From a virus (Duplodnaviria; Caudoviricetes): DNA of 51,782 nucleotides. The stretch is from the IMG/VR virus record IMGVR_UViG_3300020472_000039, positions 1 to 51,782 of that record, one strand, 5' to 3'. The position numbers were made by a program, and so were the translations under genes. The notes below the pieces were generated by a model. It made no database searches and was not told the DNA's origin. It saw only the letters and a list, made by a program, of their open reading frames with translations. Positions 2,783 to 42,388 of this stretch are shown piece after piece (the stretch's first letter is position 1; each line of letters starts with the position of its first letter).

Positions 2783-4349
2783 ACAAGAATATGTATTACA
2801 AGGATTTCACGGCGGAATTAACAATAATTCAGACTCTAAAGATATACAAGATATAGAATTTAGAGAAGCTGATGGTGTATCTATTCATGAATTAGGTAGA
2901 TTGACTAGCATTGGAAATTTAAATAGTGCTTTGGCTAACTTATCAGGTGCAGCAGCAGATATAGAGCCAGGTTATGGTTTGCATTATTTTTCAACTGATT
3001 ACGACAATTCAGAAGCAAATAGTTCAGAAGATTGGTTAGCAATTTACAATAAAGGCTCTTCACATAAAGTAAAATTTTATTATAGAGATAAAGACGGCAA
3101 TAGTCCTAATTTTACTAGTTCTGGAAATGAAGTAGTAATGGGTAGTGGAACAAAACCTAATTTTTATTATGCTGATGGATTTTTAAGAATAGGGGATGCT
3201 TCTCACACTAATACAAGTCAATACTTTGGTTATATTGATAGCAACTTATTCTGGACAAGTTCTTCTGGTCAATCGCAAAATTTACATGATATTCATAAAT
3301 GGAAACATGGAATTCAAAAATTAAAAGGGTTTGATAGTATACTTGGCGATACAGATAGAATGGTATTGTTTAATGGAAATACTTCTGCCCCAGAAGATGG
3401 AACAGGAACTTCTAACATACATCAAACTGAAAAGAAATTAATTTTATCGTATTGGACAAATGACGGAGGAGATTGGAACGGAATATATGAATTTGCTGCT
3501 ACTCCTGTTTATCTTGGAAACCAAGAAGGCGAATTGAGTATATTTAAATCAGGTTTAAACAATATTAGTACAGCTCATTTTTATAATCAAGAAGTTATAT
3601 TTCAAGTATTTATACCTACTGGAGAAGATAGTAATAGTGGCATTACAGCAGATGCTGACCATAGATTAGGAGATGATAGAATTATAGGTGTCAATTTTTA
3701 TTTTAGAAAACAAGGAGAAGAAGATTGGACTTTTTTAATGGATACTGATTTAATTGAAGGTGGTAAACATTATTGGAAATTATATAATTCAGATACAGAA
3801 ACTAATTACGGATATTGGACTGGAGCTGAAGTTACTCCATCAGCTGGAGGTTCTACTCAAACAGTATTTGAAGGTATAGATATTTTAGAGGATAGTACTA
3901 CTAATGCTACTCACATCGCTTTTTTCGATGCTGTAAATGGAAGTGGGAATAATTGGGAAGGAACTGGAAGCGCCGCTTCTCAAAAAGGTAAATCATATTT
4001 TAATGTACACTTGAGAGTAAAATTAAGCAATACTAATGTTAATGGATTTACTAATAGATATGGATTTTTAAGAATATGGGGTGGAGCAAATTCTCCTTTA
4101 TATGTAGGTACTGTAAGTAATGCTCAAATTCCTTTTTTAACAGGACAAGCTGGAACTCCAGGTACAGATTATGATACATACTATATACCAATAGCTTTAC
4201 CAGGATTAGGAACCGCTAGAGAGTTTAGAGTAGAATTGTTAGATGAAAATTTTACAGTTATAGCTGATAGTGGAATTAAAACTATGGATATTGAAGATAG
4301 TGGAAAAGCTGCACCAGAAGATTTTGAACAAACTGTGGAGATAGGATAA
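2775..4349 (+). CDS. virion tail stabilisation/nozzle-like protein, N-terminal part
   Basis: N-terminal FHGGIN...D..DI pattern; beta-rich; located before the ejection operon. Confidence 0.5.
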   Translation: MPKQEYVLQGFHGGINNNSDSKDIQDIEFREADGVSIHELGRLTSIGNLNSALANLSGAAADIEPGYGLHYFSTDYDNSEANSSEDWLAIYNKGSSHKVKFYYRDKDGNSPNFTSSGNEVVMGSGTKPNFYYADGFLRIGDASHTNTSQYFGYIDSNLFWTSSSGQSQNLHDIHKWKHGIQKLKGFDSILGDTDRMVLFNGNTSAPEDGTGTSNIHQTEKKLILSYWTNDGGDWNGIYEFAATPVYLGNQEGELSIFKSGLNNISTAHFYNQEVIFQVFIPTGEDSNSGITADADHRLGDDRIIGVNFYFRKQGEEDWTFLMDTDLIEGGKHYWKLYNSDTETNYGYWTGAEVTPSAGGSTQTVFEGIDILEDSTTNATHIAFFDAVNGSGNNWEGTGSAASQKGKSYFNVHLRVKLSNTNVNGFTNRYGFLRIWGGANSPLYVGTVSNAQIPFLTGQAGTPGTDYDTYYIPIALPGLGTAREFRVELLDENFTVIADSGIKTMDIEDSGKAAPEDFEQTVEIG

Positions 4350-27244: not shown

Positions 27245-28016
27245 ACGCTCTTGCTAATCTTGTTATTGTTGGATAAATCTGATTCTCCATAATATGAATA
27301 GATTCTCTATCTCTATGTGCAACGTGTGTCGCTACATAAGTACAAGCATTCAATAAATCCCAATATGTATTCATATTATTATTTAAACAATACCTTGTAA
27401 ATTCTTCCATATATTGTTGTGGAATCAGTTTAGCCATATCAACTAAATGCTTACTTCTTAACTTAGTCTTTGTTAGTCTTGGAAATTCTGTTTCAAACAT
27501 CTGAACTAACATAGCAACTGTATCAGTAATAGTACTATCTATTTCACCAATACTAGTATTATTATTCTTATGTACAGCTTTCTTCTTTGTTAAAACATTA
27601 CCAATTGTCAATCCATTTAAGCATACAAGCCTAAATGCACCACCCATAATATTAACAGATGTAGTACCATCGTAACTATTTGCTACTATTAATTGTGGAT
27701 TTATTAAATCTCCTTTTTCAATCTTAACTTCAGTCTTAGGGAAATTCCATTTCCAAATAGCTCTTTGACCATTTGAGAATGTTTTAGCTTCTGATAACTC
27801 AGCACCAGAACCTTTTAATACTTTTTGAACTTTATTAACAACTGATTTGTTGTCAACTACTTTGTATTCATCAGTCATACAAGATAATACATCTCCTGTA
27901 TCTTCTCTTATGATGAATTTATGACCTGTTCCTTCTGTTCTCATTACATCATCTGCGAGAACTGCTGGAACCTCCTTTACTGGAAACAGCGTTTCCTCCA
28001 TTGCTACTATAGACAT
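27243..28016 (-). CDS. DUF932/DUF945-family protein
   Basis: Y.VVDN and ANSYDGT...GAFRLVCLNGL motifs. Confidence 0.85.
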   Translation of the reverse strand: MSIVAMEETLFPVKEVPAVLADDVMRTEGTGHKFIIREDTGDVLSCMTDEYKVVDNKSVVNKVQKVLKGSGAELSEAKTFSNGQRAIWKWNFPKTEVKIEKGDLINPQLIVANSYDGTTSVNIMGGAFRLVCLNGLTIGNVLTKKKAVHKNNNTSIGEIDSTITDTVAMLVQMFETEFPRLTKTKLRSKHLVDMAKLIPQQYMEEFTRYCLNNNMNTYWDLLNACTYVATHVAHRDRESIHIMENQIYPTITRLARA

Positions 28017-28404
28017 TTTTATACTCTCCTCTTTCTACTTTTACTTTCTTTGGTGTTCTACCAAACTTTTTTATTTCATTTTTTAACATCTTATCTTCAT
28101 TTTCATATCCAGATACTATCATTTGTTGTAAATATGCAAATCCTTTACCTTGATATACGTGTTCATCCATATTGTATCTGTATACTATACGTTCTATTGT
28201 TTCATCAGGTATATTAGATATTGCTTGCAAGAAATAGAATGTCTTTTGATTATCCTTCTCAGAAGGAATATTTTGTCGAATTAATTTTATAATTCTTTGT
28301 AATCTTCTTTGACATAATTGATTTCTTTCTTCCAAAAGCGAAATGATACGCCTTGTTGGGTTGTATTTTCTTGTGCTGTCGTGTCCACATGCTACGCATT
28401 TCAT
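27949..28404 (-). CDS. hypothetical protein with N-terminal CxxC
   Basis: MKCVACG start with ATGA overlap; located in the replication region. Confidence 0.6.
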   Translation of the reverse strand: MKCVACGHDSTRKYNPTRRIISLLEERNQLCQRRLQRIIKLIRQNIPSEKDNQKTFYFLQAISNIPDETIERIVYRYNMDEHVYQGKGFAYLQQMIVSGYENEDKMLKNEIKKFGRTPKKVKVERGEYKNVYSSNGGNAVSSKGGSSSSRR

Positions 28405-28613
28405 ACCTTTGTCACTTCCGTATAAGTTGACCATATATGTTTACCTTTATAATAGCTTTCATTGTTTTTAAAATGACTTCTGTTTGGTAATGTCAAAACT
28501 AGTACTTCTGCATTTATTTCACAACCCAATAATATACCTTCTGTACCATTTTGGTTAAACATATCACCAACATTTAAATCTTTTAAAAACATTTTTCCTT
28601 TACTACACTTCAT
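28401..28613 (-). CDS. hypothetical protein
   Basis: GAGG RBS; packed ORF. Confidence 0.65.
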   Translation of the reverse strand: MKCSKGKMFLKDLNVGDMFNQNGTEGILLGCEINAEVLVLTLPNRSHFKNNESYYKGKHIWSTYTEVTKV

Positions 28614-28615
28614 TT

Positions 28616-28828
28616 TTACCTCATATTCTGTTTAATTTCATGCTCTCTTCTTTTTTCTATTACTTTTACTTGTATCTGTTTTAAGTCTTTCTTTAATGTT
28701 TCATATGGTACTTTCCATTTCCCATTATCTACACAAGGGACAACTGCTGACTCTAGCATGCCAAGACTATTTATTAATAATCCTATTTCATTGTCACTTA
28801 GTTTAATTGTTACTACTGCTTCGTTCAT
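28616..28828 (-). CDS. hypothetical protein
   Basis: packed ORF. Confidence 0.6.
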   Translation of the reverse strand: MNEAVVTIKLSDNEIGLLINSLGMLESAVVPCVDNGKWKVPYETLKKDLKQIQVKVIEKRREHEIKQNMR

Positions 28829-28976
28829 TTTCTTTTTCCCATTCGTCTTTTACAATAAAATCAATCATGTCTTTTGCGCTGGAACCTATCTCTAGGTTAA
28901 TTTTTATACGTTGTATAATTTTATTCCAAACAGTATTAACACGTCTTAATTCTTCTGCCTGTTTAAGTTTATCCAT
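28803..28976 (-). CDS. 57-aa hypothetical protein (MDKLKQAEEL...), not in the ORF track
   Basis: AAGGAGGT RBS; hand translation. Confidence 0.7.
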   Translation of the reverse strand: MDKLKQAEELRRVNTVWNKIIQRIKINLEIGSSAKDMIDFIVKDEWEKENERSSSNN

Positions 28977-29276
28977 GATACCTCCTTATATATAAGGGCT
29001 TGAGTAGCCAACCTTTCTCAACTTTTCTTCCATAGAATCCGTTTGGAATTCCTGGACCAAAGCATAAGACAAGCCCTCATATAATTTACAAAATTATCTT
29101 TATAAAACAAAGTTTATTCTCTAATTTTTTGAGGATTAGCTATCCCATCGACTCTATATAGCTTCGTTGCAAATGGAATCCTCAAATCTTATAAGTTAAG
29201 TGCCTAATAATCTAGTAGATAACCGAATATAAACTAGATAAAAGACACTTTAACTTACTCTCGCAACATATGCCAT

Positions 29277-29840
29277 TTAGAATGGCAAATCATCCGCTTC
29301 TACCTCTTCTGAAGATAATTTATCTCCATCATCCCAAGGGTGAACATTTGTAACTTTTAAAGATGTTTTCTTTTCTCCATCTTTATTAGTAAAACTTGTT
29401 TCTCTTAATTCTATTAAACAAGGAAAACCAATTACATCTGATTCTTCTACTTCACCAAGAACTACATTTCCTTCTTTATCTGAAGGGAACTTTACATTTA
29501 TTCCTTCAAAGAATTCTTTGTATCTTTTGTTCTTCCAACCTTCTCCTTCTTTAGGACTAGGTGTTAACCATACACCTTTATCAACTCTGTATTCTCTACC
29601 TGTAACATATGCTGCACTAATAGTTTCACCTGTTGGTACATAATTATCATTGTTATCTTTAGTTAATTTAGGTACTTCTAGTTTATTTGCTTCATCAGCA
29701 ACACGAAAAGTTAAATTGAATACTTTACTTCCATTGTATTCACTAGATTCAAATTTACTAACGTGAGCTGGATAAGTTGCTTCAGCTACTGGTGTAAAAT
29801 CGTTATCTTTTTCGTTATATATTGCATCTACTTCTTTCAT
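29277..29840 (-). CDS. single-stranded DNA-binding protein (phage OB-fold, DUF669-like)
   Basis: acidic C-terminus ending DDLPF; near Sak. Confidence 0.75.
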   Translation of the reverse strand: MKEVDAIYNEKDNDFTPVAEATYPAHVSKFESSEYNGSKVFNLTFRVADEANKLEVPKLTKDNNDNYVPTGETISAAYVTGREYRVDKGVWLTPSPKEGEGWKNKRYKEFFEGINVKFPSDKEGNVVLGEVEESDVIGFPCLIELRETSFTNKDGEKKTSLKVTNVHPWDDGDKLSSEEVEADDLPF

Positions 29841-30106
29841 TTCATTTCCCCTTCTGTATGTTCAATGATTAGTTCATTTATTTTATGTTTAAGCTCAGTC
29901 ATCTTTTTAGAGTACTTTGCTCCTTTGAGTCCAGCGAAATATAACATAGGTGATACCCAAGTGTTATCTCCTGTTTTAATATATCTACGATTGACTCCTC
30001 TACCTGCACTTATTTCTCCATTATTTCTCATTTCTTCAAATTGCGAATTTGTTAAAATGCCTTTTTCTAATAAGTCCGTAGCTTGTTTTATTGTTAGTTT
30101 ACCCAT
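29837..30106 (-). CDS. hypothetical protein (start MGKLTIKQ)
   Basis: AAGGAGG RBS. Confidence 0.7.
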   Translation of the reverse strand: MGKLTIKQATDLLEKGILTNSQFEEMRNNGEISAGRGVNRRYIKTGDNTWVSPMLYFAGLKGAKYSKKMTELKHKINELIIEHTEGEMK

Positions 30107-30368
30107 TTGTTTCCTCCTTAGGTTCTTCAATACTATAAGACAAATAACTTTGATTAATATTTAAATTAATATAATTATTCCTAGCAAAGTCATCAGTTGT
30201 TTTCATAACAAATGTTAGCATTGGCTTTCCATGATATAGTTTAGTTCCTGTAAATACTGCATTACGAAACTCTTTACCATCATTTACTCCAATAGTATAA
30301 CTATTATTTGTCTGATATAGTTCATCTCTATAGTTTTCTTTTGGTTTATTTATTTCACTTAGTTTCAT
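30099..30368 (-). CDS. hypothetical protein
   Basis: ATGA overlap. Confidence 0.65.
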   Translation of the reverse strand: MKLSEINKPKENYRDELYQTNNSYTIGVNDGKEFRNAVFTGTKLYHGKPMLTFVMKTTDDFARNNYINLNINQSYLSYSIEEPKEETNG

Positions 30369-30976
30369 TTAGCCGCTCTCTTTTCATCAAGTTCGTCTAT
30401 AGCTTTCTTTACTTTATCCGCTTTACGCTTCAATTTATTAAAAGCCGCTTTATAGTTAGCATCGTTAATTGTTTCATCACCGATTTGTTCAACTATCATA
30501 GCCTCAAACTCTTTATCGCCAATAATAGCAAGTAAATCTAACATTGATTTGTATTGCTCTTTATTTAACGCATCTGGAGCTTGTGGTAAATCTTCACCAG
30601 CATAGATATATAAACCTAATCCATGTAATGCTATGGCTTTTGCTAAACAACGTTGTATTGATGTATTTATTTGAAAAGCATTAGGTTCATCTACAGTTTT
30701 ATTCATATGGTCTAATACTGGATGTACTTGTGTTCTTTTTACTGAGTCTATATCTACTGTTACTTGTACAAATGCTCCAGCTGGTGTTTGCATATAAGGT
30801 TGATTTGTAAAACCATTACCCAAACCATCATCATATTCATGAACTATCCAAGTTGCTTCTGGAAAATGTTCTAGTAATGTTCTTACTGCCCATGCCCAAG
30901 AAAGATATGTAAATTTACCTTTCTTTTCTGTATGCTCACTTACATCTATTTTACTTAATACATTAAACGCACTCAT
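30365..30976 (-). CDS. Sak-type single-strand annealing protein (DUF1071, Rad52-like)
   Basis: YLSWAWA and INTSIQRCLAKAIALHGLGLYIYAGED motifs. Confidence 0.9.
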   Translation of the reverse strand: MSAFNVLSKIDVSEHTEKKGKFTYLSWAWAVRTLLEHFPEATWIVHEYDDGLGNGFTNQPYMQTPAGAFVQVTVDIDSVKRTQVHPVLDHMNKTVDEPNAFQINTSIQRCLAKAIALHGLGLYIYAGEDLPQAPDALNKEQYKSMLDLLAIIGDKEFEAMIVEQIGDETINDANYKAAFNKLKRKADKVKKAIDELDEKRAAK

Positions 30977-31208
30977 TTAAATCCCCCCATTTATCATACA
31001 AATTGTCAAAGTTACTCATAATTTGTTTCCAAGTATCTTTGTCTATACTAGCACTATTTCTAGCTTCAGAACTAAACATATTATGTTGTCCATCTTGTCT
31101 AACTTCAAGAAATGCTATCCATTCATCTTTGTATATTTTGTTTATTGGATTATTATTTTTTCCGTCTCCAACTATTGCATAATTATCTTCATTTGTAATT
31201 TTTAACAT
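30963..31208 (-). CDS. hypothetical protein (DUF5049-like)
   Basis: VRQDGQHNMF motif. Confidence 0.55.
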   Translation of the reverse strand: MLKITNEDNYAIVGDGKNNNPINKIYKDEWIAFLEVRQDGQHNMFSSEARNSASIDKDTWKQIMSNFDNLYDKWGDLNECV

Positions 31209-31825
31209 ATTCTAAATCCTCCTGATTGTCTACAAAATTTTGAAAATTGTATTAGATTTTCTTTATCGAAAGGGTATCTTCCAGCCCAATCTTCTTTGTC
31301 ATTTAGTTTATCCCAAAGTTTTCTAAAATCTTCTGGATAATCCATAGGTGCTATATCTTTTTTACCAGTAGCTTTACGAACAATTTCTCGTAATTCTTCC
31401 TTTTCTTTAGATATTGCTTCATTAATTATTCTTGCTTTTTCAACTCCAGCCATTATTTCTTTTTCAATAGTATCAACTGTTCCGTCTTTTATTAATACAT
31501 CTAATAAATCAGCCATAGCTAATGCTTTCTCTTCTGAAATCAAATGATTATCATTAAATGAACCACCAGCCATATCTTCTTCAGTTAATACATCTTCACA
31601 AGCATTACAAACAAAATTCCACATTTGTCTCCACCACCAAACATTATTTCTAAAATAATCACCTGGATTAGTTTCTCTTAACTGTTTTTGTAATTCAAAA
31701 TATTCTTCTTTCTGTTCATCAGTTATTTTATCATCTTCCCACAATCTATCTAATTCTTCTCTTCTGTTTAAATCATCTTCCATTGCGTTATTCTTAGGGT
31801 TTTCACCATATAAATCAAATCCCAT
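31202..31825 (-). CDS. conserved phage hypothetical protein
   Basis: MGFDLYG, YFRNNVWWWR and SGGFRIC motifs; GGAGG RBS. Confidence 0.75.
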   Translation of the reverse strand: MGFDLYGENPKNNAMEDDLNRREELDRLWEDDKITDEQKEEYFELQKQLRETNPGDYFRNNVWWWRQMWNFVCNACEDVLTEEDMAGGSFNDNHLISEEKALAMADLLDVLIKDGTVDTIEKEIMAGVEKARIINEAISKEKEELREIVRKATGKKDIAPMDYPEDFRKLWDKLNDKEDWAGRYPFDKENLIQFSKFCRQSGGFRIC

Positions 31826-31826
31826 C

Positions 31827-32051
31827 TTATTCTCCTCCGTATCTCTTTTTAAATCGTTTAATTTTAGCTATTATATCTTCAGCTACTGTTGCATCTTTGT
31901 TACTAAACATAAGTCTTATTCTCGTTGGGAGCACCACATCAGAATTACACACACTACAACACTTTCCATTATTAATAGGCTCAGCATTATGTCCGTATGG
32001 GTCATCATGTTCTCCTTCACATATACTACATTTTAGTTTTTTATCTTTCAT
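31827..32051 (-). CDS. small Zn-finger protein
   Basis: CSIC...GHNAEP...CCSVCN. Confidence 0.7.
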   Translation of the reverse strand: MKDKKLKCSICEGEHDDPYGHNAEPINNGKCCSVCNSDVVLPTRIRLMFSNKDATVAEDIIAKIKRFKKRYGGE

Positions 32052-32075
32052 CTAAGTTCCTCCGTATTATATAGT

Positions 32076-32804
32076 TTAGACACTATATAGACCAGGACAA
32101 TGTTTGCCCTGAAATTCACAATATTTGCATTCCCAATTATATACAGGAACATTCATAGTTCCAGGTTTTAACTGTTCAGGCTCATTATCTATTTTCTCTT
32201 GCACTTCATTAAGTTCAGTCCAGTAGTCAAATGCTTCTTCTATGTAAAGATTAGATATATTTTCTTCTCTCATCATAGAGCTATCTTTATTATACCACAT
32301 TATAGATAAGTTTACATCAGTAATATCATGTTCATTACCTAAACCCATTCCATAAGTAGCTAATTGTAATTCATAGTTAACTGAAGGATTCTTGTCTGGA
32401 TTTCTACCAAACTTCATTCTCCATTTCCATGCTCCTGCAGTCTTAATATCATAGACGTGTATCTTGTCTGTTTGTTTGTTTACAACTCCTACATCCAGAT
32501 GACCTACTACATTAAGCTCAGGTATCTCTATTCGGTGTTCTGTAACAACTTCTAAACCTTTCTCTTTATACTTGTCTAGTGATTTTTCAAAGTCTGCATG
32601 TACTAGAGTTCCAAGTCTTAATAATCTATTAGATTTTTCATCCATTGGTTCTAGTGGTAAATCTTGTGTTCTGTGCAATTGCTTTCTAAAACAACTACCA
32701 GCTGCACTAGCTGAAAACCAACCACGATGTTTAGAGTATTTTTCTCTATTTTCATGGCGTAGTTTTTCTAAGTAATCGTTATATATTTTTGGTATATCTA
32801 TCAT
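32076..32804 (-). CDS. Cas4/RecB-like PD-(D/E)XK exonuclease
   Basis: SAAGSCFRK, GTLVH, GHLD, YDIKT, QLATY, CKYCEF...C. Confidence 0.85.
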   Translation of the reverse strand: MIDIPKIYNDYLEKLRHENREKYSKHRGWFSASAAGSCFRKQLHRTQDLPLEPMDEKSNRLLRLGTLVHADFEKSLDKYKEKGLEVVTEHRIEIPELNVVGHLDVGVVNKQTDKIHVYDIKTAGAWKWRMKFGRNPDKNPSVNYELQLATYGMGLGNEHDITDVNLSIMWYNKDSSMMREENISNLYIEEAFDYWTELNEVQEKIDNEPEQLKPGTMNVPVYNWECKYCEFQGKHCPGLYSV

Positions 32805-32820
32805 TGATTCCTCCGTCTAC

Positions 32821-32849
32821 AATATAAACATATTTCAGGTTAAATACAA
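32821..32849 (-). promoter_or_regulatory. sigma70-type promoter for the recombination/replication operon
   Basis: minus-strand TTGTAT-17 bp-TATATT just upstream of the GGAGG RBS. Confidence 0.6.
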
Positions 32850-32947
32850 CACCTATTCAGGCTATCGGGACATTTTTGATAATATTAATACAAGAAAATA
32901 TTACTAAATCGAATGAATAGACGACATCCTAGTCCCGTGCCTAATTA

Positions 32948-33214
32948 TTATACTAATCTTCTATAATCATAAAATAACTGATTATTGTTTTGAGTATCTT
33001 CTAATACATATTTACCAAAATTTGCTTCTTTATGTTGAACTCTTCTCATATCTATATCAAAGCCTTCAGTATGTCTAAGTCTATGTATTATTGAACTTAG
33101 CCTAGTTACACGATATAATTCAAATGCATCAAGGCTAGTGATATTACCATATTTTCTTAAGTGTTTTAATATCTTAACTGTCTGAGTATCTTTACCATAT
33201 CTAAATCTTAACAT
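32948..33214 (-). CDS. helix-turn-helix DNA-binding protein
   Basis: ILKHL...ITSLDAF...RLSSIIHRLR..G.DI winged-HTH pattern. Confidence 0.8.
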   Translation of the reverse strand: MLRFRYGKDTQTVKILKHLRKYGNITSLDAFELYRVTRLSSIIHRLRHTEGFDIDMRRVQHKEANFGKYVLEDTQNNNQLFYDYRRLV

Positions 33215-33215
33215 A

Positions 33216-33449
33216 TTAATCTCCTTTATATAATTTTATGTTAATTCTCCAATTAAATAAATCTTTAATCTTGTAATACCATCTTACCAAAGGATGTGAT
33301 AAGCGATAACTTGCAAATGCATTAACAATATGACCTGCTTTAGGTTCATAGTTATAAAATTCCCATTCATCTCCTGTTGACATTGGTTCTATTCTATATT
33401 GATTGAATTTATCAACTATATTTAATAATCTTTTTCTTGATTCATTCAT
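33216..33449 (-). CDS. hypothetical protein
   Basis: ATGA overlap. Confidence 0.6.
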   Translation of the reverse strand: MNESRKRLLNIVDKFNQYRIEPMSTGDEWEFYNYEPKAGHIVNAFASYRLSHPLVRWYYKIKDLFNWRINIKLYKGD

Positions 33450-34009
33450 GATTCTTCTTCCTCTTCTTCTTTCTTTTTCATTTGTGATAAGTATTTCATT
33501 TTACTTCTACCTTTAAGAACAGTTCTAGTTTTCCAGTCATTTGCTTCTAAATACTTAATATGCTCTTTATAATCTTTAACAACTTGATAGTTTATATCAG
33601 AACTATTGTCAAAGTTACTTAATAAGTCTGGACTAAGCCTACTATATTTACTTCTGATTATATATCTTTTTCTAGCTTCTATAATCTTTCGTTTCTTTTC
33701 ATCGGCTTCATCATATTCTTGTTGCCATTTAACTAATAAAATACACTCTTCCATATATTTATATTTAATTTTAAATCTCTTTAAATCTCTATAATGTTTA
33801 GGGTCGTGTTTAAATTCTCTATCTGATGTTTCAATAGTATAACTTTTAACTTGTTCTATTGATTTAGCTTTAGCTTCTTTGAATCCATCTCTATTTTTAA
33901 GATATAGTCTTTGATAATGTTTAAAACATAATTTAAGTCTTTTATGATATCTATATCTCTTACAACCTGAATGCATACAATAGTATTTCTTCCAATTTTT
34001 CTTCTTCAT
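33446..34009 (-). CDS. basic hypothetical protein with N-terminal C-x4-C...C-x2-H
   Basis: Lys/Arg-rich ORF. Confidence 0.6.
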   Translation of the reverse strand: MKKKNWKKYYCMHSGCKRYRYHKRLKLCFKHYQRLYLKNRDGFKEAKAKSIEQVKSYTIETSDREFKHDPKHYRDLKRFKIKYKYMEECILLVKWQQEYDEADEKKRKIIEARKRYIIRSKYSRLSPDLLSNFDNSSDINYQVVKDYKEHIKYLEANDWKTRTVLKGRSKMKYLSQMKKKEEEEEES

Positions 34010-34245
34010 CTGTTTCTCTTTACATCTTTATAAATGCTCTCCCAATCATGATGTCCACAATTTTCACAAACTGTTACACCTGCGTTAGCACACTTATGAC
34101 ATATTTCGCCACTAGTAACTAACTCATGCCATATATTTTCAGTTATCTGTATATTCGCACCAGTCTTCTCACCATAATAAGCACCAATATAGTATGCTAA
34201 TAATGATGAAAGTATTGCTATAAGTATTACATATTCAATATTCAT
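34006..34245 (-). CDS. membrane-anchored small Cys-rich protein
   Basis: N-terminal TM; CHKC...CENC. Confidence 0.65.
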   Translation of the reverse strand: MNIEYVILIAILSSLLAYYIGAYYGEKTGANIQITENIWHELVTSGEICHKCANAGVTVCENCGHHDWESIYKDVKRNR

Positions 34246-34282
34246 CTTTGCCTCTTTTCTATTTATTTATTTATTAAATTTT

Positions 34283-35075
34283 AATATATCTTGAGATTAT
34301 AGATATATTCGTTAGTTCTTTGAGATGCGTACGGCTTATATTCCTTACATCTATTATCCACAAAGATTTCTCCGTGTAAACTAACATTCCCAATAGGTAT
34401 TGCCTATCACTCTTTCTCTTAGGTTGTTTAAACGACTACTTATTCAAATGTAAAAGTGCCCTTCTACGAATCAATTTTCATCATTTGTATAGCGACTTGA
34501 GGTCATCTATACCCTGTCGTATTTCAGACAGGACAAGGGAACTATGCTCCCAAGAGTTTAAAGATTCTTTTCCTTTGTTATCTAATATAACTAATAATGC
34601 ACAAGTGCACTATTCTATGCTTAGTGTAACAATGTAGCAATTAGTGTATCCACTTTAAATTATATACCTTAATACCTTTTGAGTACTAAATAGTATAAGA
34701 TACCCTTATGCTTCTAGCAAGAACTAGATTTACATGGTCTTGGTAACTATCATCTAACACTTTCGTATTAGCTAGACATATACCGACTAATAATAACAAC
34801 CTTGCTCTTAACAATTATGTCATTATCTATGGATTCTCCTGTTGATGTCACCATCTCACTCAATATTGCTGTACTGAGATATTATCCTACTACTCGCCTA
34901 AAAGGACTTAAGTGATAGTTTAATATGTACTCCACATGCATACTCAAACACCAAAGTATATTGATGTCGCTTTATTTACATTGTTTATAAATAAAACTTT
35001 ATCTATGTTTCCATAGTTTATCTAACGACTATATGCAGCCGACTCTTATGTATCGTAGAGTAAACGAATTCTTTG
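34283..35075 (-). ncRNA. large structured ncRNA, GOLLD-like (boundaries approximate)
   Basis: ~800 nt without ORFs; many hairpins including GAAA tetraloops on the minus strand; terminal stem with UAAUCUCA loop. Confidence 0.55.
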
Positions 35076-35273
35076 GGAGAGGTACTAACGGTTTAAAGAA
35101 CCCCTCCCGCAATTACACTATATCAATTTCATCATTGTGTAGTTAAATACATTGGTAGTCTTGCATACCTTCAACACTAGAAAGATTTTCATGTATAATT
35201 CTATAAAATTAGGGCGCCTTTAAGTATATTACTACGTATACTAACTGATTAGGTAAAGAGGCAAAGCACCCTA

Positions 35274-35480
35274 TTAATTATTAATACTATATAATGCCCT
35301 CTTAATCATTATATCATCAAGCTCATCAATAAGCTTCTTTAATTCTTGTTCTGATACTTCACTACGTATTAATATCAATTCATCTATATTTGATAATTGC
35401 TTACCATGTACATCTAGATAACATTGTTTATACGTTAAAAATAATTCATCTCTTCTACTAAAAGTCATATCTTGTAACAT
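35274..35480 (-). CDS. hypothetical early protein
   Basis: GAGG RBS. Confidence 0.6.
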   Translation of the reverse strand: MLQDMTFSRRDELFLTYKQCYLDVHGKQLSNIDELILIRSEVSEQELKKLIDELDDIMIKRALYSINN

Positions 35481-35522
35481 TTGTATACCTCTTTTCTTAG
35501 TTTTAATAGTATCTAAGGGACA

Positions 35523-35672
35523 CTAATCTAGCGCCCCTTTAAAGAACTTACATACATATAAGAATAACTCTATCAAATCATATATCTTTACAGGCTTACC
35601 TGTATCAATAATGACTAGATAGCGACCTTTCTCATCACTATGTAGTTCAGATGCAATATGTATATATCGCAT
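35523..35672 (-). CDS. 49-aa early protein (MRYIHIASEL...), not in the ORF track
   Basis: perfect AAAGGAGGTGAT RBS. Confidence 0.65.
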   Translation of the reverse strand: MRYIHIASELHSDEKGRYLVIIDTGKPVKIYDLIELFLYVCKFFKGALD

Positions 35673-35960
35673 GTATATCACCTCCTTTCTTATCTTTATC
35701 TATAAGGAAATGATATTTAAATTCTTTGGGTATATTTCAAGAGATGTTGTGTCTCTTTTCTTTCTTCTCCGTATATACCCTTAACGTGATAATATTTATT
35801 TTAGATTTTAATAGCTACTACTACTATTAATTCTTATATCTAGTTTATCCCCATGTTATACACATATTACTATATAATAGGGTAATGTATGTCTATACAA
35901 GTCTAATTAAACTATATTCACACTATTTGCCATGTTTATAACAATAATAGTAGAATAATG

Positions 35961-35993
35961 AGAGAAAAGGGACAACCTAGCGTCATCCCTTTA
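35961..35993 (-). terminator. intrinsic terminator
   Basis: GGGATGAC-GCTAG-GTTGTCCC then TTTT immediately after the 35999..36286 stop. Confidence 0.7.
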
Positions 35994-35998
35994 ATCAA

Positions 35999-36286
35999 CT
36001 ACTTGGTTACGGCTTCTGCTGCATCTACCTGTTTAGCTAAATTAGCTACATTAGGTCCCATACTAGCAAATAACGTATCCATCACATTGACACCGGTTCC
36101 AAAACCTTCGATGTTCCACTCTCTACCCTTCTCGATAATCTGACCAAGGGCATACCATAATTTGTTAGGAGATAGACCATACTTACTACTAGCATCTTTC
36201 TCTAACTTAATTAAGGTGAGTTGGACTCCAATGTTGAATAAGGCTTGCTTATCCATAGATTCCTCCAATCGTTTAATTAAACTCAA
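35999..36286 (-). CDS. first gene of the early arm, hypothetical (start may be the internal ATG of MDKQAL)
   Basis: ORF with its own terminator; GGAGG precedes the internal ATG. Confidence 0.65.
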   Translation of the reverse strand: MSLIKRLEESMDKQALFNIGVQLTLIKLEKDASSKYGLSPNKLWYALGQIIEKGREWNIEGFGTGVNVMDTLFASMGPNVANLAKQVDAAEAVTK

Positions 36287-36368
36287 CTAAATTTTCTTAG
36301 TATAAAAACCCCAACAAAGGGGTACCCCCCCTCTATATAGGTGCATATCAAAATGCTACAATTTTTTG

Positions 36369-36397
36369 TTGCAAATAACATGGGGTATGATTAGATT
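36369..36397 (+). promoter_or_regulatory. sigma70-type promoter at the start of the late arm
   Basis: TTGCAA-17 bp-TAGATT before the AAGGAG RBS. Confidence 0.55.
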
Positions 36398-36418
36398 AGT
36401 CTAAACAAAGGAGCATTT

Positions 36419-36622
36419 ATGTCTAGAATTACAAGTGATGATTTAAGTGGCAACCAGGCATTAACTGGAGTAGCACGTAAAGAAAAAGAAGAGAAAGAAC
36501 GTCTACAACAGCAAATGGAAGAACGCTTATTAGAAAACGCAATAGAGCACATTAGAAAAGAGCAGATTAAAGCTAAAGATTTAAAGAAAAAGAAAGAACC
36601 AAAGAAAAAGAAATCTACATAA
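36419..36622 (+). CDS. small charged hypothetical protein
   Basis: AAGGAG RBS. Confidence 0.7.
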   Translation: MSRITSDDLSGNQALTGVARKEKEEKERLQQQMEERLLENAIEHIRKEQIKAKDLKKKKEPKKKKST

Positions 36623-36659
36623 TCTACTATTATCTATAAGTAGCTGCTAGTAGCTATCT

Positions 36660-36688
36660 AAGATAAAGTGTTTTATTAGGTTAGTCAA
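36660..36688 (-). promoter_or_regulatory. leftward sigma70-type promoter
   Basis: minus-strand TTGACT-17 bp-TATCTT. Confidence 0.55.
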
Positions 36689-36699
36689 GGAAAAAATGT

Positions 36700-36975
36700 A
36701 TGGGTACATCAATTAATTGGTTAAGTAAACTTCCTCAAGAGGACCAAGAGCGTATTTTAGGTCAAATTGAGAAACTAGTTAAACTAGAGCGCATCTTAAC
36801 TAAAGAACTAGAAGACGAAGAGCATATAATGACGGTTATAGACGATGAAGCCGATGCTGCCGAGGGAACAAATAGTGTACCTATAGAAATCAATGGAATA
36901 AAACATTGGGTTCACAAGGATGTTATGTATTTGATTGAGTCCTTGCATAAACAATTAGCAAAACGTGGAAAGTAA
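36700..36975 (+). CDS. hypothetical protein
   Basis: ORF overlapping the next gene. Confidence 0.7.
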   Translation: MGTSINWLSKLPQEDQERILGQIEKLVKLERILTKELEDEEHIMTVIDDEADAAEGTNSVPIEINGIKHWVHKDVMYLIESLHKQLAKRGK

Positions 36976-37744
36976 AAAAATTAGAAATAAAAGACATTAC
37001 GTCTATGATACAAAAGAGGAGTTTATGAAGGACCATCCCAAAGGGATACTTCACTCCGAATGGAGAGATGCAAAGGAGGGAGATTGGGTTTTGAGTGATG
37101 ATAAACGTATTGTTCAACTTCTTAAAGTGTCTGATAAACTTAGTCATCCAAAAGATTCTAAAAACTATAAACAATCTAAAGGGTATGTAAGAACTATAGT
37201 TGGAACATTTATCAATGCTAAGAAAACTAATATGGATACGGACTTTGAGAAACACCCGAATCGTTACACATTTAGCACCAAAATCAAGAATACTTCCTCT
37301 AGGGTAAAGGAGAGGTCGAATTGTACAAACAGAGAAAAAATTTTCGCCACGAGCGTGGCAGTAGGAAAAGATGCAGTAAGTGCATATATGAAAGCATTTT
37401 CAGAAGCAAACAAAGGTAAGGCTAGAAAAAAAGCAGTAGTCTTACTTAAACAGGAGAGAGTAATGAGCGAAATTGAAAAAACTTCAAAAGAAATCGCTAA
37501 ACAGCTAGGAATTGACCATGCATATATATTAGGTTCCCTAAAGCAGTTAGCAGATACAAGTGAAGACCAAAATATAGCATTGCAGTCCTTAAAGGAATTA
37601 GGGAAAGCAATTGGTACATTAGGTAATCAAGTTAAAAGAATAGAAACTGGAGTCGTAGGAATGTTCCAAGGGTTTAGTCCTGATGAAATAGAAGGAGCCT
37701 CAAGAGCTATACTTCCAGAAACAACATCCAAGGAGGATAAATGA
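36965..37744 (+). CDS. probable terminase small subunit
   Basis: C-terminal AY.KAF...A..LLK...V..EI...LKELGK pattern; upstream of TerL. Confidence 0.55.
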   Translation: MESKKIRNKRHYVYDTKEEFMKDHPKGILHSEWRDAKEGDWVLSDDKRIVQLLKVSDKLSHPKDSKNYKQSKGYVRTIVGTFINAKKTNMDTDFEKHPNRYTFSTKIKNTSSRVKERSNCTNREKIFATSVAVGKDAVSAYMKAFSEANKGKARKKAVVLLKQERVMSEIEKTSKEIAKQLGIDHAYILGSLKQLADTSEDQNIALQSLKELGKAIGTLGNQVKRIETGVVGMFQGFSPDEIEGASRAILPETTSKEDK

Positions 37745-38625
37745 TTTGTCCACATTGCAGTAGCATGTTAACAAAAAAAGAGGGTAAGAAGAGAAACAAA
37801 GAAACTGTAAAGCAGCAATTTAGTTGTAAGTCTTGCGGTAAATGGTTTTCTATTCCTATACCTTCAGATGTAAAAGAGTATGATAAGAAACACATAGAGC
37901 CTGGAAAACTATTCCAAGTAAAGAGTTCTGAGAAACTACGAATACATGGATTAACTGATATACACGTTGGAGCAAATGAATTTGATTTGAAGAAATTTCA
38001 AGAGGCAATCAAAATTATATATGAAGACCCGAATGCACGATGGTTTGGGAATGGAGATATGATAGAACTGATTCCCCCTAATTATAAAATAAATCAAAGA
38101 GGGCAAAGTATTCCACCAGAAGAGCAATATCTAAGCTTCTTAAAACTGGTACAACCCATACAGGATAAGTGCCTATTTGTAAGAGGAGGGAATCACGACT
38201 ATCTAAGAAGTTTTAATATACTAGATTTTGATGTATGTAAAACATTAGCAAGTGAAATGGATGTTCCATATTTTAGATTGCCAGGATATGCACAAATTAC
38301 TATTGGGGATAAAGATTGGTTTCTAGTTAGTGGACACGGAAAAAGTGGAGCTAAAAACGGAGACATGGAATTGAATCAAATGGCATCAGTATATAGTGAT
38401 GGAGATGTTTACTTTTTAGGACATAACCACCAGTTGTATTGTAAGCCAATAGATTCATTGACAATAGATGAAGGAGAAGAAAGTCTAAAACGTAAATGGT
38501 TTGTAAGAGGAGGGTCGTTCCTCAGATACGCAGACTATGCTCGTTATAGCTTCTATGGGATTCAACGTACGGGTTGGATTACTATGGAATTTACTAAAGA
38601 TAAAATAAACTGTTGGGAGAACTAA
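37741..38625 (+). CDS. calcineurin-like metallophosphoesterase with N-terminal Zn ribbon
   Basis: TDIHVG, NGDMIE, GNHD, GHG and GHNH motifs; CPHC...CKSC. Confidence 0.85.
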   Translation: MICPHCSSMLTKKEGKKRNKETVKQQFSCKSCGKWFSIPIPSDVKEYDKKHIEPGKLFQVKSSEKLRIHGLTDIHVGANEFDLKKFQEAIKIIYEDPNARWFGNGDMIELIPPNYKINQRGQSIPPEEQYLSFLKLVQPIQDKCLFVRGGNHDYLRSFNILDFDVCKTLASEMDVPYFRLPGYAQITIGDKDWFLVSGHGKSGAKNGDMELNQMASVYSDGDVYFLGHNHQLYCKPIDSLTIDEGEESLKRKWFVRGGSFLRYADYARYSFYGIQRTGWITMEFTKDKINCWEN

Positions 38626-38626
38626 A

Positions 38627-38731
38627 ATGCCATACGGAAAAGGAACATACGGAAGTGCAGTTGGAAGACCTAAAAAAAAGAAACCTGCAATGCCAAAGAA
38701 AAAACGTAAAGTAGTTAAAAAAAGAAAATAG
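38627..38731 (+). CDS. 34-aa very basic peptide (MPYGKGTYGSAVGRPKKKK...)
   Basis: GGAG RBS; hand translation. Confidence 0.65.
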   Translation: MPYGKGTYGSAVGRPKKKKPAMPKKKRKVVKKRK

Positions 38732-38866
38732 ATGAAAAACGTTGGAATACAAGTTAGAAGAAGTAACGGAAAAAAGAAGACTCGTCAGGGTCAAAGTAAA
38801 AATACGAAGTTTGGAAATAAGTTAAGTCCAAAATACTATAAGAAAAGGAGTAGGGGACAAGGATGA
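38732..38866 (+). CDS. 44-aa basic peptide (...KKTRQG...KKRSRGQG)
   Basis: abuts the previous stop; ATGA overlap with the next gene. Confidence 0.65.
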   Translation: MKNVGIQVRRSNGKKKTRQGQSKNTKFGNKLSPKYYKKRSRGQG

Positions 38867-39120
38867 AAAATAAGAAAAGTCTATCAAAACATGATATTAT
38901 GAGAGCTATTAAAGGTATGTCTTTTCAATTAGAAGCATTACAACGTCATGTATTAATGATAGACGATGTATTAGATAAATACATTCGCATGAATAAAGAC
39001 GATAAAAAGCTTGTAAAATATTTGGAAAAAATACGTAAGGAACAAGAAGAAAAAGCTGAAAAAGATGAACAAGATTCAAAATATAAGCAAAGCAGAAGAA
39101 GCGCTCCAGCTAGCAAGTAA
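38863..39120 (+). CDS. hypothetical protein
   Basis: packed ORF. Confidence 0.65.
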   Translation: MKNKKSLSKHDIMRAIKGMSFQLEALQRHVLMIDDVLDKYIRMNKDDKKLVKYLEKIRKEQEEKAEKDEQDSKYKQSRRSAPASK

Positions 39121-40636
39121 GGATATGATTGCTTTTGGTAAATTATTTTTACCAGACGATTTTATGCGAAGCGAAACTCCAGCATTTCATTATGAGATGG
39201 CGGATGCTATTGATAACCCAGAAGTAAAACAACTAGCGGTTATTTTGCCTCGTGGTCACGGAAAAACTGTGCTTACTAAATGCTCAATTATTAAGGACTT
39301 TTGTTTTTGTCCAAAAGATGATATGCTATTTTATGCATGGGTATCTGCGACACAAAAACTGAGTACTGGTAATATGGACTATATTAAGTATCACTTTGAA
39401 TATAACGATAAAATCAAATACTATTTTGGTAATTTGAAAGGAAGGAAATGGACAGAAGAAGATGTTGAATTACAAAATGGATGTAAGCTCATTAGTAAAT
39501 CGAATGTTGCAGGGATTCGAGGAGGGGCTAAATTACATAAGAGGTACGACCTTATTATTCTCGATGACTTCGAACATGAAGCAAACACGATTACAGCTGA
39601 AGCACGTAGTAAAAACTCTAACCTCGTTACTGCTGTGGTTTATCCTGCTATCGAGCCTCATACTGGTAGGCTTCGGGTTAATGGTACTCCTGTGCATTAT
39701 GATAGTTTTATCAATAATCTTATCATTAATTACGAACGTCAAAAAAAAGGTAAAGACGATTTTGCGTGGAGAGTAATTACATATAAAGCAATATTGCCAG
39801 ATGGCAGCTCTTTGTGGCCTGGATGGTTTCCTCTTTCTAAGTTAGCAGAAAAAAAGAAATTCTATCAAGATAGTGGTACTCCATCAAAATTCTATCAAGA
39901 GTATATGATGCAGGTACAATCTGAAGAAGATTCAGTTTGGACACAAAAACATATTAAATATTGGGAAGGATATTATGAATATGACAAGGAATCGGAAATG
40001 GGATATATTGTTCAAGACGGAGAAAGAGTTCCTGTTAATACATTCATAGGATGCGACCCAGCTACAGATATTGATACAAAAGAATCAGACTTTAGTGTAA
40101 TAATGGTTATTGCTGTAGACTCAAATAACAATAGGTATGTATTGGAATATGAAAGACATCGTAGTGTTCCTACTTTAGGAGCAAAAGATAAGGATGGAAA
40201 AGTTTTTGATAGAAAGGGTGTAGTAGATTATATTATTGAATTGTATAATAAATATAATTGTAAGAGTGCTACAGTAGAAGATGTAGCTATGAATCGTAGT
40301 ATTTTTCAAGCATTGAATGACGAAAGAAGACGAATAAACAGATATGATATTAGCGTTATTCCTGAGAAGCCAGGAGGGACTCAAAAAAGAAATAGAATTT
40401 ATTCAGGTTTATCTGGCATTTTTAGTGTAGGTTCATTATATTTTAGAGAAAATATGTTTGATTTAATTAATGAAATCATTACATTTGGACCAAGAATGGC
40501 ACATGATGATACAATTGAGGGACTATATTATGCTAATTTACACGCTTTTCCCCCTAATTTTAAACAAAATGGGACAAAAGAGAAGCCAAAATGGTATAAA
40601 CCGAAAAGAAAAGCAAAACATTGGTTGGTATCATAA
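39065..40636 (+). CDS. terL: terminase large subunit
   Basis: PRGHGKT Walker A; IILDDFE Walker B; GTP; FYQEY; GCDPA and HDDTIE nuclease motifs. Confidence 0.95.
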   Translation: MNKIQNISKAEEALQLASKDMIAFGKLFLPDDFMRSETPAFHYEMADAIDNPEVKQLAVILPRGHGKTVLTKCSIIKDFCFCPKDDMLFYAWVSATQKLSTGNMDYIKYHFEYNDKIKYYFGNLKGRKWTEEDVELQNGCKLISKSNVAGIRGGAKLHKRYDLIILDDFEHEANTITAEARSKNSNLVTAVVYPAIEPHTGRLRVNGTPVHYDSFINNLIINYERQKKGKDDFAWRVITYKAILPDGSSLWPGWFPLSKLAEKKKFYQDSGTPSKFYQEYMMQVQSEEDSVWTQKHIKYWEGYYEYDKESEMGYIVQDGERVPVNTFIGCDPATDIDTKESDFSVIMVIAVDSNNNRYVLEYERHRSVPTLGAKDKDGKVFDRKGVVDYIIELYNKYNCKSATVEDVAMNRSIFQALNDERRRINRYDISVIPEKPGGTQKRNRIYSGLSGIFSVGSLYFRENMFDLINEIITFGPRMAHDDTIEGLYYANLHAFPPNFKQNGTKEKPKWYKPKRKAKHWLVS

Positions 40637-40851
40637 TGTTTGATTTATTTAAGGATGAAAATGAATATAACGAAAAGAATATCATTGGATTTCTTTCATT
40701 CGCACTTATGTGTGTATTTGGAATTGTAGATTTAGCAATGGGAATTATAGGTATTGAACTTATGGTTAATGACTATATTTACAATTCATTTGTTTGGATT
40801 ACACTTGGTTCGTTTGGAATTTCAGGAGCAGAAAAAGTTTATAAAAAATAG
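40636..40851 (+). CDS. small two-TM membrane protein (holin-like)
   Basis: TAATG coupling gives ATG 40636; two hydrophobic segments; close to the endolysin. Confidence 0.6.
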   Translation: MFDLFKDENEYNEKNIIGFLSFALMCVFGIVDLAMGIIGIELMVNDYIYNSFVWITLGSFGISGAEKVYKK

Positions 40852-40859
40852 GAACAATT

Positions 40860-41996
40860 ATGCAACAAGATAAAAAAAAGTGGATAGATAGGCAATGGCA
40901 TACTGATTATGGCTCAGAATATGAAGAAAGTTTTGAAGAAAGAAAGATTCGAGAAAATAGAAAAAGCAAATTATTTAGTGGATGGAAAGAAAAAAGAGCG
41001 GAAAAATTAAGAAATAAAGCAGATAAACTAGACCCTCCAAAACCAGAACCAACAATGGGAAAAGGGGTTGTAGAATCTTTAGTAATGGATAATTTTGTAA
41101 AAGGAGAAGATAAAAGTAGTCTATACAATTATTCTTTGGAAGACGAAAAAAAACAAGTAAAATTAGCAGATTTAGGATTTATGACTCACGATGAAGTAGA
41201 TGGGAAATGGGGACCTCAATCTGTTCAAATGGATTCCTTGTATGTAATATTAAAAGGAAAAGGTTTTGATGACAAAACTATTACCGCTAGAAATTATGCA
41301 GAACGTGAAGGATATAGTGAAAAAGTTTTAAATTTATTAGACCCAGTTAATGGAGAAGCTGGAAAAGAATTATTTATGTATGCAACAACTCCTAATTTAC
41401 AACAATTTTTAACAAAAGAAGAAAAACAAGTATTATTCAAAGATTCTTTACCAAAACAAATACCAAGCGGTAGAGGGGATAGAATGGTTGACGCAGAATA
41501 TAGCGATGCAAGTGTTGAAGATATTGTTATGGGTAAAATGGAAAGTATGGATAAAAATAAATTAGATGAAGATAAAATAAAACATCTTTATGGAAAAGTG
41601 GGATTAGCAGCTTTAGATGTAGGAAGATATACTGCTGGTAAGCTTGGTACTATAGGAGAAAAATTTGAAAAAATAAGAAATAATCCTGAAACTCTTGCAA
41701 GATTTCTAGGACTTTCTAATCCGCTATTAGTTGAAGAAATGGTACAAGCTAGTAAATTTGTTGTGAAAAAAGGCAGTGAAAAAATTAAAGATATGAAAAA
41801 TAAAAATAAAGAACAAGTTGTTCCTTGGATTGAAAATCAAGAACGTCTTAATGAATCTAAATATGGTAGAAAAGATATTAGACAAGCTACTAATCAAGAA
41901 ATAGTAAATCCTCGTATGCCTGGAGAATTAAGAAGAGAAGCAGAAGAAGCTGGTTTAGAAGATAAAAGTCCTTATGTAGGGAAAAGGAATTATTAA
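40860..41996 (+). CDS. hypothetical protein with a peptidoglycan-binding-like motif
   Basis: KQVKLADLGF...VDGKWGPQS resembles the PG_binding_1 DG.xG..T motif. Confidence 0.5.
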   Translation: MQQDKKKWIDRQWHTDYGSEYEESFEERKIRENRKSKLFSGWKEKRAEKLRNKADKLDPPKPEPTMGKGVVESLVMDNFVKGEDKSSLYNYSLEDEKKQVKLADLGFMTHDEVDGKWGPQSVQMDSLYVILKGKGFDDKTITARNYAEREGYSEKVLNLLDPVNGEAGKELFMYATTPNLQQFLTKEEKQVLFKDSLPKQIPSGRGDRMVDAEYSDASVEDIVMGKMESMDKNKLDEDKIKHLYGKVGLAALDVGRYTAGKLGTIGEKFEKIRNNPETLARFLGLSNPLLVEEMVQASKFVVKKGSEKIKDMKNKNKEQVVPWIENQERLNESKYGRKDIRQATNQEIVNPRMPGELRREAEEAGLEDKSPYVGKRNY

Positions 41997-42388
41997 TGCC
42001 AAGTTTTGGAAAAAAATCACAAGAAAAATTAAATACATGCGACCCTAGATTAGTAGAACTATTTGAAATAGTAGTAGAAGATTTTGATTGTACTGTTTTG
42101 CAAGGACATCGTGGAGAAGAAGAACAGAACAAGCTATTTGAAGAAGGATTTAGTAAATTAAAATATCCAAAAGGAAATCATAACAAATATCCTTCATTGG
42201 CTGTAGACGTTGCTCCTTATCCAGTAGACTGGGAAGATAGAGAACGATTTACGTATTTTGCTGGATTTGTTATGGGGATTGCTGCTTCAATGGGACTTAC
42301 TATTCGTTGGGGTGGAGATTGGGACAGAGATACAAATTTAAAAAATAATAATTTTGATGATTTACCACATTTTGAAATAAGGGACTAA
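41996..42388 (+). CDS. endolysin, M15-family L-Ala-D-Glu peptidase (T5-like)
   Basis: GHRGEEEQ, H...PSLAVD, RWGGDW and DLPHFE motifs. Confidence 0.9.
   Translation: MPSFGKKSQEKLNTCDPRLVELFEIVVEDFDCTVLQGHRGEEEQNKLFEEGFSKLKYPKGNHNKYPSLAVDVAPYPVDWEDRERFTYFAGFVMGIAASMGLTIRWGGDWDRDTNLKNNNFDDLPHFEIRD

Follow-up and report, generated by a model that had tools for sequence, protein, structure and literature searches.

GOLLD RNAs usually adjoin tRNAs. They rank with the largest non-coding RNAs of bacteria and phages, and their cage structure was solved in 2025. The env-38 GOLLD, an 833-nt RNA from a marine metagenome, assembles into a 14-mer with D7 symmetry (PDB 9MEE; PMC12990946), and the 700-nt GOLLD of Streptococcus agalactiae forms a 12-mer (PDB 9L0R; PMC12990946). 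In the solved cages, the 3′ domains form the ring and the 5′ domains the caps, loop L20 kisses the end of linker J13/15 within a layer, and the two layers are joined by self-kissing L21a and L21b together with an L24 tetraloop contact (PMC12286853, PMC12990946). The partner of the L24 tetraloop is given as P21 of the other half-shell, and L14 is described as touching P21 of a neighbouring chain in a minor-groove contact (PMC12990946); L11a is given as GAAA (PMC12286853).

With these systems as reference, we analysed a stretch of 51,782 bases, hereafter the window, which is a whole or nearly whole virus record, estimated to be 97% complete, without end repeats and with a G+C content of ~31%. 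Its phage origin follows from terminase, portal and capsid genes as well as from the virus record itself. The genes for the small and large terminase, portal, major head protein and tail fibre lie on the plus strand, in an arm that runs from ~36.4 kb to the window end and continues from 1 to 21.9 kb, and the minus-strand arm (22–35.5 kb) encodes a DnaB-like helicase and a Cas4-like exonuclease. The terminases of the closest cultured phages are just 23–24% identical, and blastn against INPHARED phages gave no match for the gap (distant mode) or for 20 kb (near mode); hence we assign no host.

Next to the region where the two gene arms diverge, positions 34246–35273 (1028 nt) form the longest stretch of the window without an ORF of at least 60 aa on either strand, the next-longest internal gap of this kind measuring 477 nt. 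Six ORFs, all of 31–50 aa, lie inside it. It is bordered on the minus strand by an upstream ORF of 68 aa (35274–35480) and a downstream ORF of 79 aa (p79, 34006–34245), both without family match, and the ribosome-binding site of p79 comes 36 nt after the RNA described below. A first-pass annotation had singled out the element as the longest non-coding stretch, located at the front of the minus-strand replication arm with no tRNA nearby. The length comparison and the gene layout agree with this, and ARAGORN finds no tRNA in the window. The RNA may be an early transcript.

The same annotation had taken the element as a candidate GOLLD-like giant ncRNA, for which covariance-model searches and covariation among homologues were suitable checks. 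The Rfam model RF02032 (GOLLD) matches the minus strand at 34705–34288 over its full length (model 1–416 of 416) with 114.7 bits and an E value of 4.7e-31, and a second search gave the same placement with E 3.6e-33. A default gathering-score scan of the window is empty because 114.7 bits lies below the Rfam gathering score of 150 bits for RF02032. ROOL gave no covariance-model match at E up to 10 within 34000–35600, and the sole other Rfam match, to a yeast snoRNA at E 7.1, is a chance hit. The UCAAAAG loop, GUGGAUA / GUGGAUAA and the terminal UAAUCUCA loop are all in register with the Rfam GOLLD consensus, in agreement with the first-pass annotation, which had named UCAAAAG, GUGGAUAA and UAAUCUCA as GOLLD motifs. 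The alignment is gapped by 16 nt at the site of a small hairpin of the model (positions 233–246). GOLLD RNAs measure ~700–830 nt and have a less conserved, separate 5′ domain; the element measures 786 nt and has a 360-nt 5′ domain with covarying helices.

Three scans of viral contigs, with a GOLLD motif pattern, the neighbouring 294-aa protein and a 24-nt 5′ motif as queries, yielded 209 loci, and nhmmer with the window's element gave 35 hits. Once 7 hits cut by contig ends and 6 duplicates were dropped, 22 distinct full-length homologues with 47–83% identity to the window remained, which together with the window make up the 23 sequences of alignment A2. Four homologues exceed the Rfam threshold (L016 with 278.9 bits, L208 with 205.4, L206 with 191.9 and L201 with 175.6) and align with the window at 47–60% identity over both domains. 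Others score below it (141.2, 136.3, 121.7, 120.8, 118.9, 116.5, 110.8 and 70.3 bits), and the scores across the homologues form a continuum. Of the phage lineage to which the window belongs, 11 members were tested, window included, and not one reaches 150 bits, i.e. the gathering score misses a whole clade. The 23-sequence profile aligns end to end with many other GOLLDs from viral contigs, which identifies the 5′ half of the window's RNA as the common GOLLD 5′ domain.

Two further observations concern the reach of such searches. L147 and L158 match the window with nhmmer E values of 1.8e-45 and 1.1e-42, and neither was picked up by the Rfam GOLLD model when 68.5 kb from multiple loci were searched at E up to 0.001; filters and model can thus miss members of the clade entirely. 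In bacterial and archaeal genomes, the 5′-motif pattern found 36 stretches, by our estimate about the number that chance would give for 17 fixed bases, and the GOLLD profile recognised just one of these, the contig-end fragment L238, which provided no host clue.

The minus strand from 35066 to 34281 folds at −211.8 kcal/mol (z −9.41, with 0 of 20 shuffles as good), compared with −152.1 kcal/mol (z −1.71) for the plus strand of the same stretch; the fold is far beyond chance and strand-specific. For the 23 sequences, RNAalifold proposes 105 pairs, and 82 of these show compensatory change; a long-range pairing in its output (A2 columns 21–23 with 913–915) has no double changes and was left out. 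In a 154-pair structure, assembled from separate domain folds and then counted on A2, the paired cells amount to 91.0%, compared with 70.4±0.5% after shuffling and 38.6–45.2% with slid partners. Double-sided changes occur in 118 of the 154 pairs, against 83.9±3.6 after shuffling (0 of 500 shuffles reached this number) and 45–63 after sliding. Both domains contribute to this signal, and in the 3′ domain (A2 helices 18–32, P14–P27) the helices are mostly 88–100% paired with compensatory changes, the exception being the absent P21 hairpin. The RNA is homologous to GOLLD over both domains, and its fold has been kept by selection. Altogether, the candidate put forward in the first-pass annotation is supported by the full-model RF02032 match, which is positive for GOLLD where ROOL is nil, by the homologues and by covariation that is strong on 23 sequences, both in RNAalifold and in pair counts against shuffles. 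We thus conclude that minus-strand positions 35066–34281 are very probably the GOLLD RNA gene of a divergent sub-lineage, carried by an uncultured ~52-kb marine tailed phage, and we include the proposed cage assembly in this reading. Points against it are the sub-threshold Rfam score, the consensus hairpin that is missing and, in a family usually found beside tRNAs, the lack of a tRNA in the window.

The whole RNA comprises ~785 nt on the minus strand (34281–35066), with its 5′ end at ~35066 and its 3′ end at ~34284–34281, as judged from the edges of homology with L176, the ends of RNA contigs, the start of conservation and the fold. Its extent had initially been put at 34283–35075; the element is real, but the RNA proper spans ~35066–34281 and the upstream part, 35067–35273, is unconserved among relatives. 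All features given in the following lie on the minus strand, and the P and L names were taken from the order of the helices and the text of the cited papers. The 5′ domain (34707–35066) holds ~12 helices with compensatory changes and aligns end to end with the corresponding part of GOLLDs that exceed the Rfam threshold in their 3′ halves. It includes the hairpin CUAUG-GAAA-CAUAG (35003–35016; A2 columns 48–52 with 57–60), in which three of four pairs have changed on both sides and the GNRA loop reads GAAA, GUAA or GCAA among relatives. A second hairpin with a GAAA loop (34751–34774, with CUAAUAC-GAAA-GUGUUAG at 34754–34771) sits within a longer stem (34738–34786) and is covered by the covarying A2 helices 14–16; its loop is possibly the conserved L11a.

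The 3′ domain (34288–34705) is the part matched by RF02032. It begins with a long hairpin (34643–34706, P14/L14 by position) capped by UCAAAAG (34676–34682), for which we rely on the Rfam alignment and on covariation of A2 helices 18–21. The variable linker J13/15 (34577–34642) that follows has ~66 nt, one local hairpin and no tRNA according to ARAGORN; it is unalignable and its length varies (A2 columns ~500–620). At the 3′ end of the linker stands AAAGGAAAAG (34567–34576), the presumed partner of L20 in the inter-chain kissing contact, which covaries with L20 across 58 GOLLDs as judged by eye. The Rfam alignment places next the hairpin CCUGUC-UGAAAUAC-GACAGG (34513–34532) and the hairpin GAC-CUCAA-GUC (34494–34504, P20/L20), the latter backed also by the L20 covariation. 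The P21 region (34431–34485) consists of a stem, 34480–34485 with 34431–34436, and a single hairpin at 34450–34467 with the loop GGCA; here the Rfam alignment has its gap, and helices 23–25 covary. Further towards the 3′ end lie the hairpin GAUAGG-CAAUA-CCUAUU (34392–34408) inside the conserved GAGUGAUAGGCAAUACCUAUUGGG, with A2 helix 27 being 100% paired and four of six pairs changed on both sides, and the hairpin ACACGGA-GAAA-UCUUUGU (34354–34377), whose tetraloop is L24 by position (Rfam alignment; helix 30) and which is followed by the conserved GUGGAUAA (34354–34361; Rfam alignment). The RNA closes with a terminal hairpin (34284–34308, P27/L27 by position) that exposes the loop UAAUCUCA (34292–34299); it is placed by the Rfam alignment, and all seven pairs of helix 32 have changed on both sides. 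The five minus-strand hairpins read in the first-pass annotation are all present where it had located them.

Among the listed runs that hold the 6-kb stretch, eight are RNA libraries. Four RNA runs were compared over 28000–42000 on the level of contigs, each of which has one depth and an unreadable strand, and depth is a poor measure of expression. In run X10, the contig covering 34040–35066 has a depth of 436.9, compared with 4.0–13.6 for the seven other listed phage contigs; the corresponding values are 14.7 (34568–35066) against 3.4–6.2 in X19 and 10.7 (33946–35268) against 3.3–6.2 in X18. Run X20 holds only fragments of a relative, at a depth of 2.2–2.95 compared with 2.4–7.1 for the other listed phage contigs, and shows no enrichment. 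In three of the four RNA libraries, the contig of the element is thus the deepest listed phage contig. The contigs of X10 and X19, which come from different studies, both end at 35066 without a loose end. This position coincides with the edge of the block to which homology with L176 is confined in the slot (34285–35067) and with the start of conservation, which begins near 35060 in alignments A2 and A3. The shared stop is a weak hint that 35066 is the 5′ end of the RNA. On the 3′ side, the X10 contig runs 240 nt past the RNA into the next ORF and the X18 contig passes both ends, and hence these contigs show no discrete 3′ end. Stretches that the RNA contigs leave uncovered were given no weight as evidence.

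This continuation of the contigs would fit an element that serves the downstream genes mainly as their structured 5′ UTR, a cis-acting leader within the replication-arm mRNA and no free-standing RNA particle, as would the position of the next ORF only 36 nt after the terminal hairpin and without an intervening terminator. However, the module sits before different genes in different phages (a p187-like gene in L147 and L158, p79 in the window), the homology blocks stop at 34285 and at 35067, and the homologous GOLLDs are free, self-assembling RNAs. We therefore regard the leader as an improbable explanation and keep to that of a GOLLD RNA gene.

As to how this gene may be transcribed, a promoter scan returned 20 promoter-like sites against 15.6±3.1 expected, which is the chance level, and no terminator was found near the RNA. 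A block at 35828–35896 is 86–100% conserved in five siblings that otherwise have unrelated DNA around it, and its minus strand carries, by our reading, the sigma-70-like TTGTAT-17-TTATAT. It could be a promoter of the replication arm, in which case the RNA would be processed from a longer transcript. The stretch 35067–35273 was considered as a tRNA remnant or conserved promoter and rejected, with a fold z of −1.60 and no conservation among 8 relatives beyond ~20 nt. Just upstream of the RNA 5′ end, the minus strand has a G+C-rich hairpin at 35070–35103 (GGGAGGGGUU...ACCUCUCCC), which is specific to the window, being absent from 7 aligned relatives, and has no U run after it. In the X19 contig, position 34568 is preceded on the plus strand by 12 additional T, which correspond to an A run after the linker motif AAAGGAAAAG on the RNA strand. 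Seen in this single contig, the run could mean that the RNA was cleaved at the linker and then polyadenylated, or it could be an artefact of assembly or of priming where the sequence is rich in A.

We then asked which of the contacts known from the solved cages have counterparts in the window. The L20 partner was found only by setting the linker motif beside L20; a mutual-information search on the profile alignment, in which the linker is poorly aligned, did not recover it. Across 58 distinct GOLLD 3′ domains, compared by eye and without a shuffle control, the L20 base and the linker base are G-C in 37 rows, C-G in 7, A-U in 3 and U-A in 4, and in six further rows the L20 loop is one base longer and paired to CGG. 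In the window, L20 (CUCAA) stands opposite AAAGGAAAAG with either U·G or a one-base shift to GA, and without a Watson–Crick pair at the covarying position. Judging from the bases, the window keeps a pairable L20–linker combination. It also keeps the GAAA tetraloop at the L24 position and one P21 hairpin (34450–34467, loop GGCA), and the other P21 hairpin (Rfam model 233–246) is absent. The P21 region has 55 nt in the window; in 41 of the 58 GOLLDs it has 70–75 nt with two hairpins, 15 are without one of the hairpins, and 2 are ambiguous. All but one of these 15 belong to the window's phage lineage, whose 17 distinct GOLLDs comprise 14 without the hairpin and 3 with it. Two P21 hairpins are not universal in the GOLLD family, as the S. 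agalactiae GOLLD has a single one as well, and single-hairpin variants are possibly already listed in the alignments or covariation tables of PMC12286853.

The lineage differs from other GOLLD carriers also in its surroundings. Besides the window, all 16 GOLLD-bearing loci of the lineage are free of tRNAs, compared with tRNAs at 17 of 24 other GOLLD loci scanned, several of which have tRNA-Met directly beside the RNA. A ~52-kb phage that carries GOLLD and no tRNA argues against a function that needs neighbouring tRNAs. At the other loci, we observed tRNA-like genes in tRNA arrays near GOLLD (L053 1198–1288, L027 5643–5733, L041 2005–2096 and L105 10863–10937), to which ARAGORN assigns four-base anticodons (ctta, ccct) and one stop-codon anticodon (tta). 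Three unrelated viral contigs have a tmRNA within a few kb of GOLLD (L016 9059–9474, L094 2090–2486 and L118 13563–13958).

Sibling loci were fetched via the 294-aa protein, and those that extend 3.2 kb or more beyond the small terminase gene on its upstream side were counted; among these 42 loci, counted with duplicates and for the slot only, GOLLD is present in 19 and absent in 23. The GOLLD-less sibling L122 is 96–97% identical to the window over 31000–34021 and 91% identical over 36334–39000, and its slot (3395–4113, minus strand) holds a different ORF-free sequence of 720 nt that has no Rfam match at E up to 1. Parts of this cassette recur in other siblings without GOLLD. Such near-identical phages, with GOLLD or with another cassette in the slot, offer a natural presence/absence handle on function. 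Specific to this lineage are, altogether, the single P21 hairpin, the lack of tRNAs, Rfam scores below the threshold and the swapping with other cassettes.

Further ORF-free cassettes occupy the slot in L120/L121/L130, L133, L134, L136, L139, L140, L142–L144, L150, L153, L154, L156, L157 and L163. A module of ~230 nt in the L122 cassette (3420–3655) has a predicted closing stem of 14 bp, occurs in at least 9 distinct sequences and has no Rfam match at E up to 1. Double changes affect 3 of its 67 predicted pairs, the copies being too similar for a covariation test; it may be an undescribed RNA.

Could the RNA of this lineage be the degenerating remnant of a GOLLD gene that has ceased to function? 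This would explain both the low Rfam score and the lost hairpin, and it would agree with the failure of all 11 lineage members to reach the Rfam threshold and with the absence of the RNA from many sibling phages. Yet compensatory changes continue inside the hairpin-less clade, e.g. between the window and L067 or L127, the signature loops are intact, and the element provides the deepest phage contig in three RNA libraries, all of which makes a relic very unlikely. Scarcely credible at all is that the six ORFs of 31–50 aa encode small proteins, or that the location near the arm divergence point marks a replication origin or packaging site, given that the differences among relatives are double substitutions in paired bases and indels of lengths not divisible by three, that no small ORF was seen conserved by eye, and that an RNA would account for both the match to the covariance model and the strand-specific fold.

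We thus favour a GOLLD RNA gene, whose product would be cut from, or started within, the minus-strand replication-arm transcript, with its 5′ end at ~35066. By analogy with the two GOLLDs solved by cryo-EM, the RNA would assemble by itself, without protein, into a two-layered homo-oligomeric cage, in which the 5′ domains would serve as caps and the 3′ domains as ring, with each layer held by L20–linker kissing. With only one P21 kissing hairpin, a single loop–loop contact would connect the two layers in addition to the L24 tetraloop contact. As the S. agalactiae GOLLD, with its single P21 hairpin, is a 12-mer, the copy number here may differ from that of the env-38 14-mer. We infer oligomerisation of the window's RNA from these solved relatives. 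Our best guess at the role of the cage is that of an accessory which the phage can do without and in which a macromolecule of the host or phage would be enclosed or sequestered in the course of infection. A natural variant without one of the two layer-joining loop–loop contacts would test how the hairpin content sets the copy number.

More tentatively, and with some doubt on our part, the lineage might represent a distinct structural subclass of GOLLD, defined by one P21 hairpin, no tRNA and scores that escape the Rfam threshold, whose cage would not be a 14-mer or would be closed more weakly, and which would behave as an exchangeable accessory module. The last point is suggested by siblings with 96–97% identical flanks that carry an unrelated cassette in the slot. 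If true, GOLLD would be an accessory, e.g. a device for host takeover or counter-defence, that stands outside the core phage programme and outside tRNA biology.

In comparison with known systems, the GOLLD described here is a new, divergent member of an already known family. ROOL RNA (~580 nt, from phages and plasmids) is likewise a large, ornate, cage-forming and phage-associated RNA, but it is unrelated to the window's RNA in sequence and fold. The S. agalactiae GOLLD shares with the window the single P21 hairpin, which leads to one loop–loop contact between the layers. The two RNAs differ in which hairpin is missing: the S. agalactiae GOLLD is reportedly without P21b, P9 and P11a–c, whereas the window is instead without the first P21 hairpin according to the Rfam alignment. 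They differ also in their setting, a Firmicute prophage in the one case and a marine phage in the other. The env-38 GOLLD, which lies downstream of tRNA-Met and has both P21a and P21b, is unlike the window in these two respects, the latter having no tRNA and a single P21 hairpin. By its published description, it shares with the window the two-domain layout, the variable linker, the signature loops and the L20–linker kissing, and it resembles the window in its marine phage origin and its length, 833 nt compared with 786 nt.
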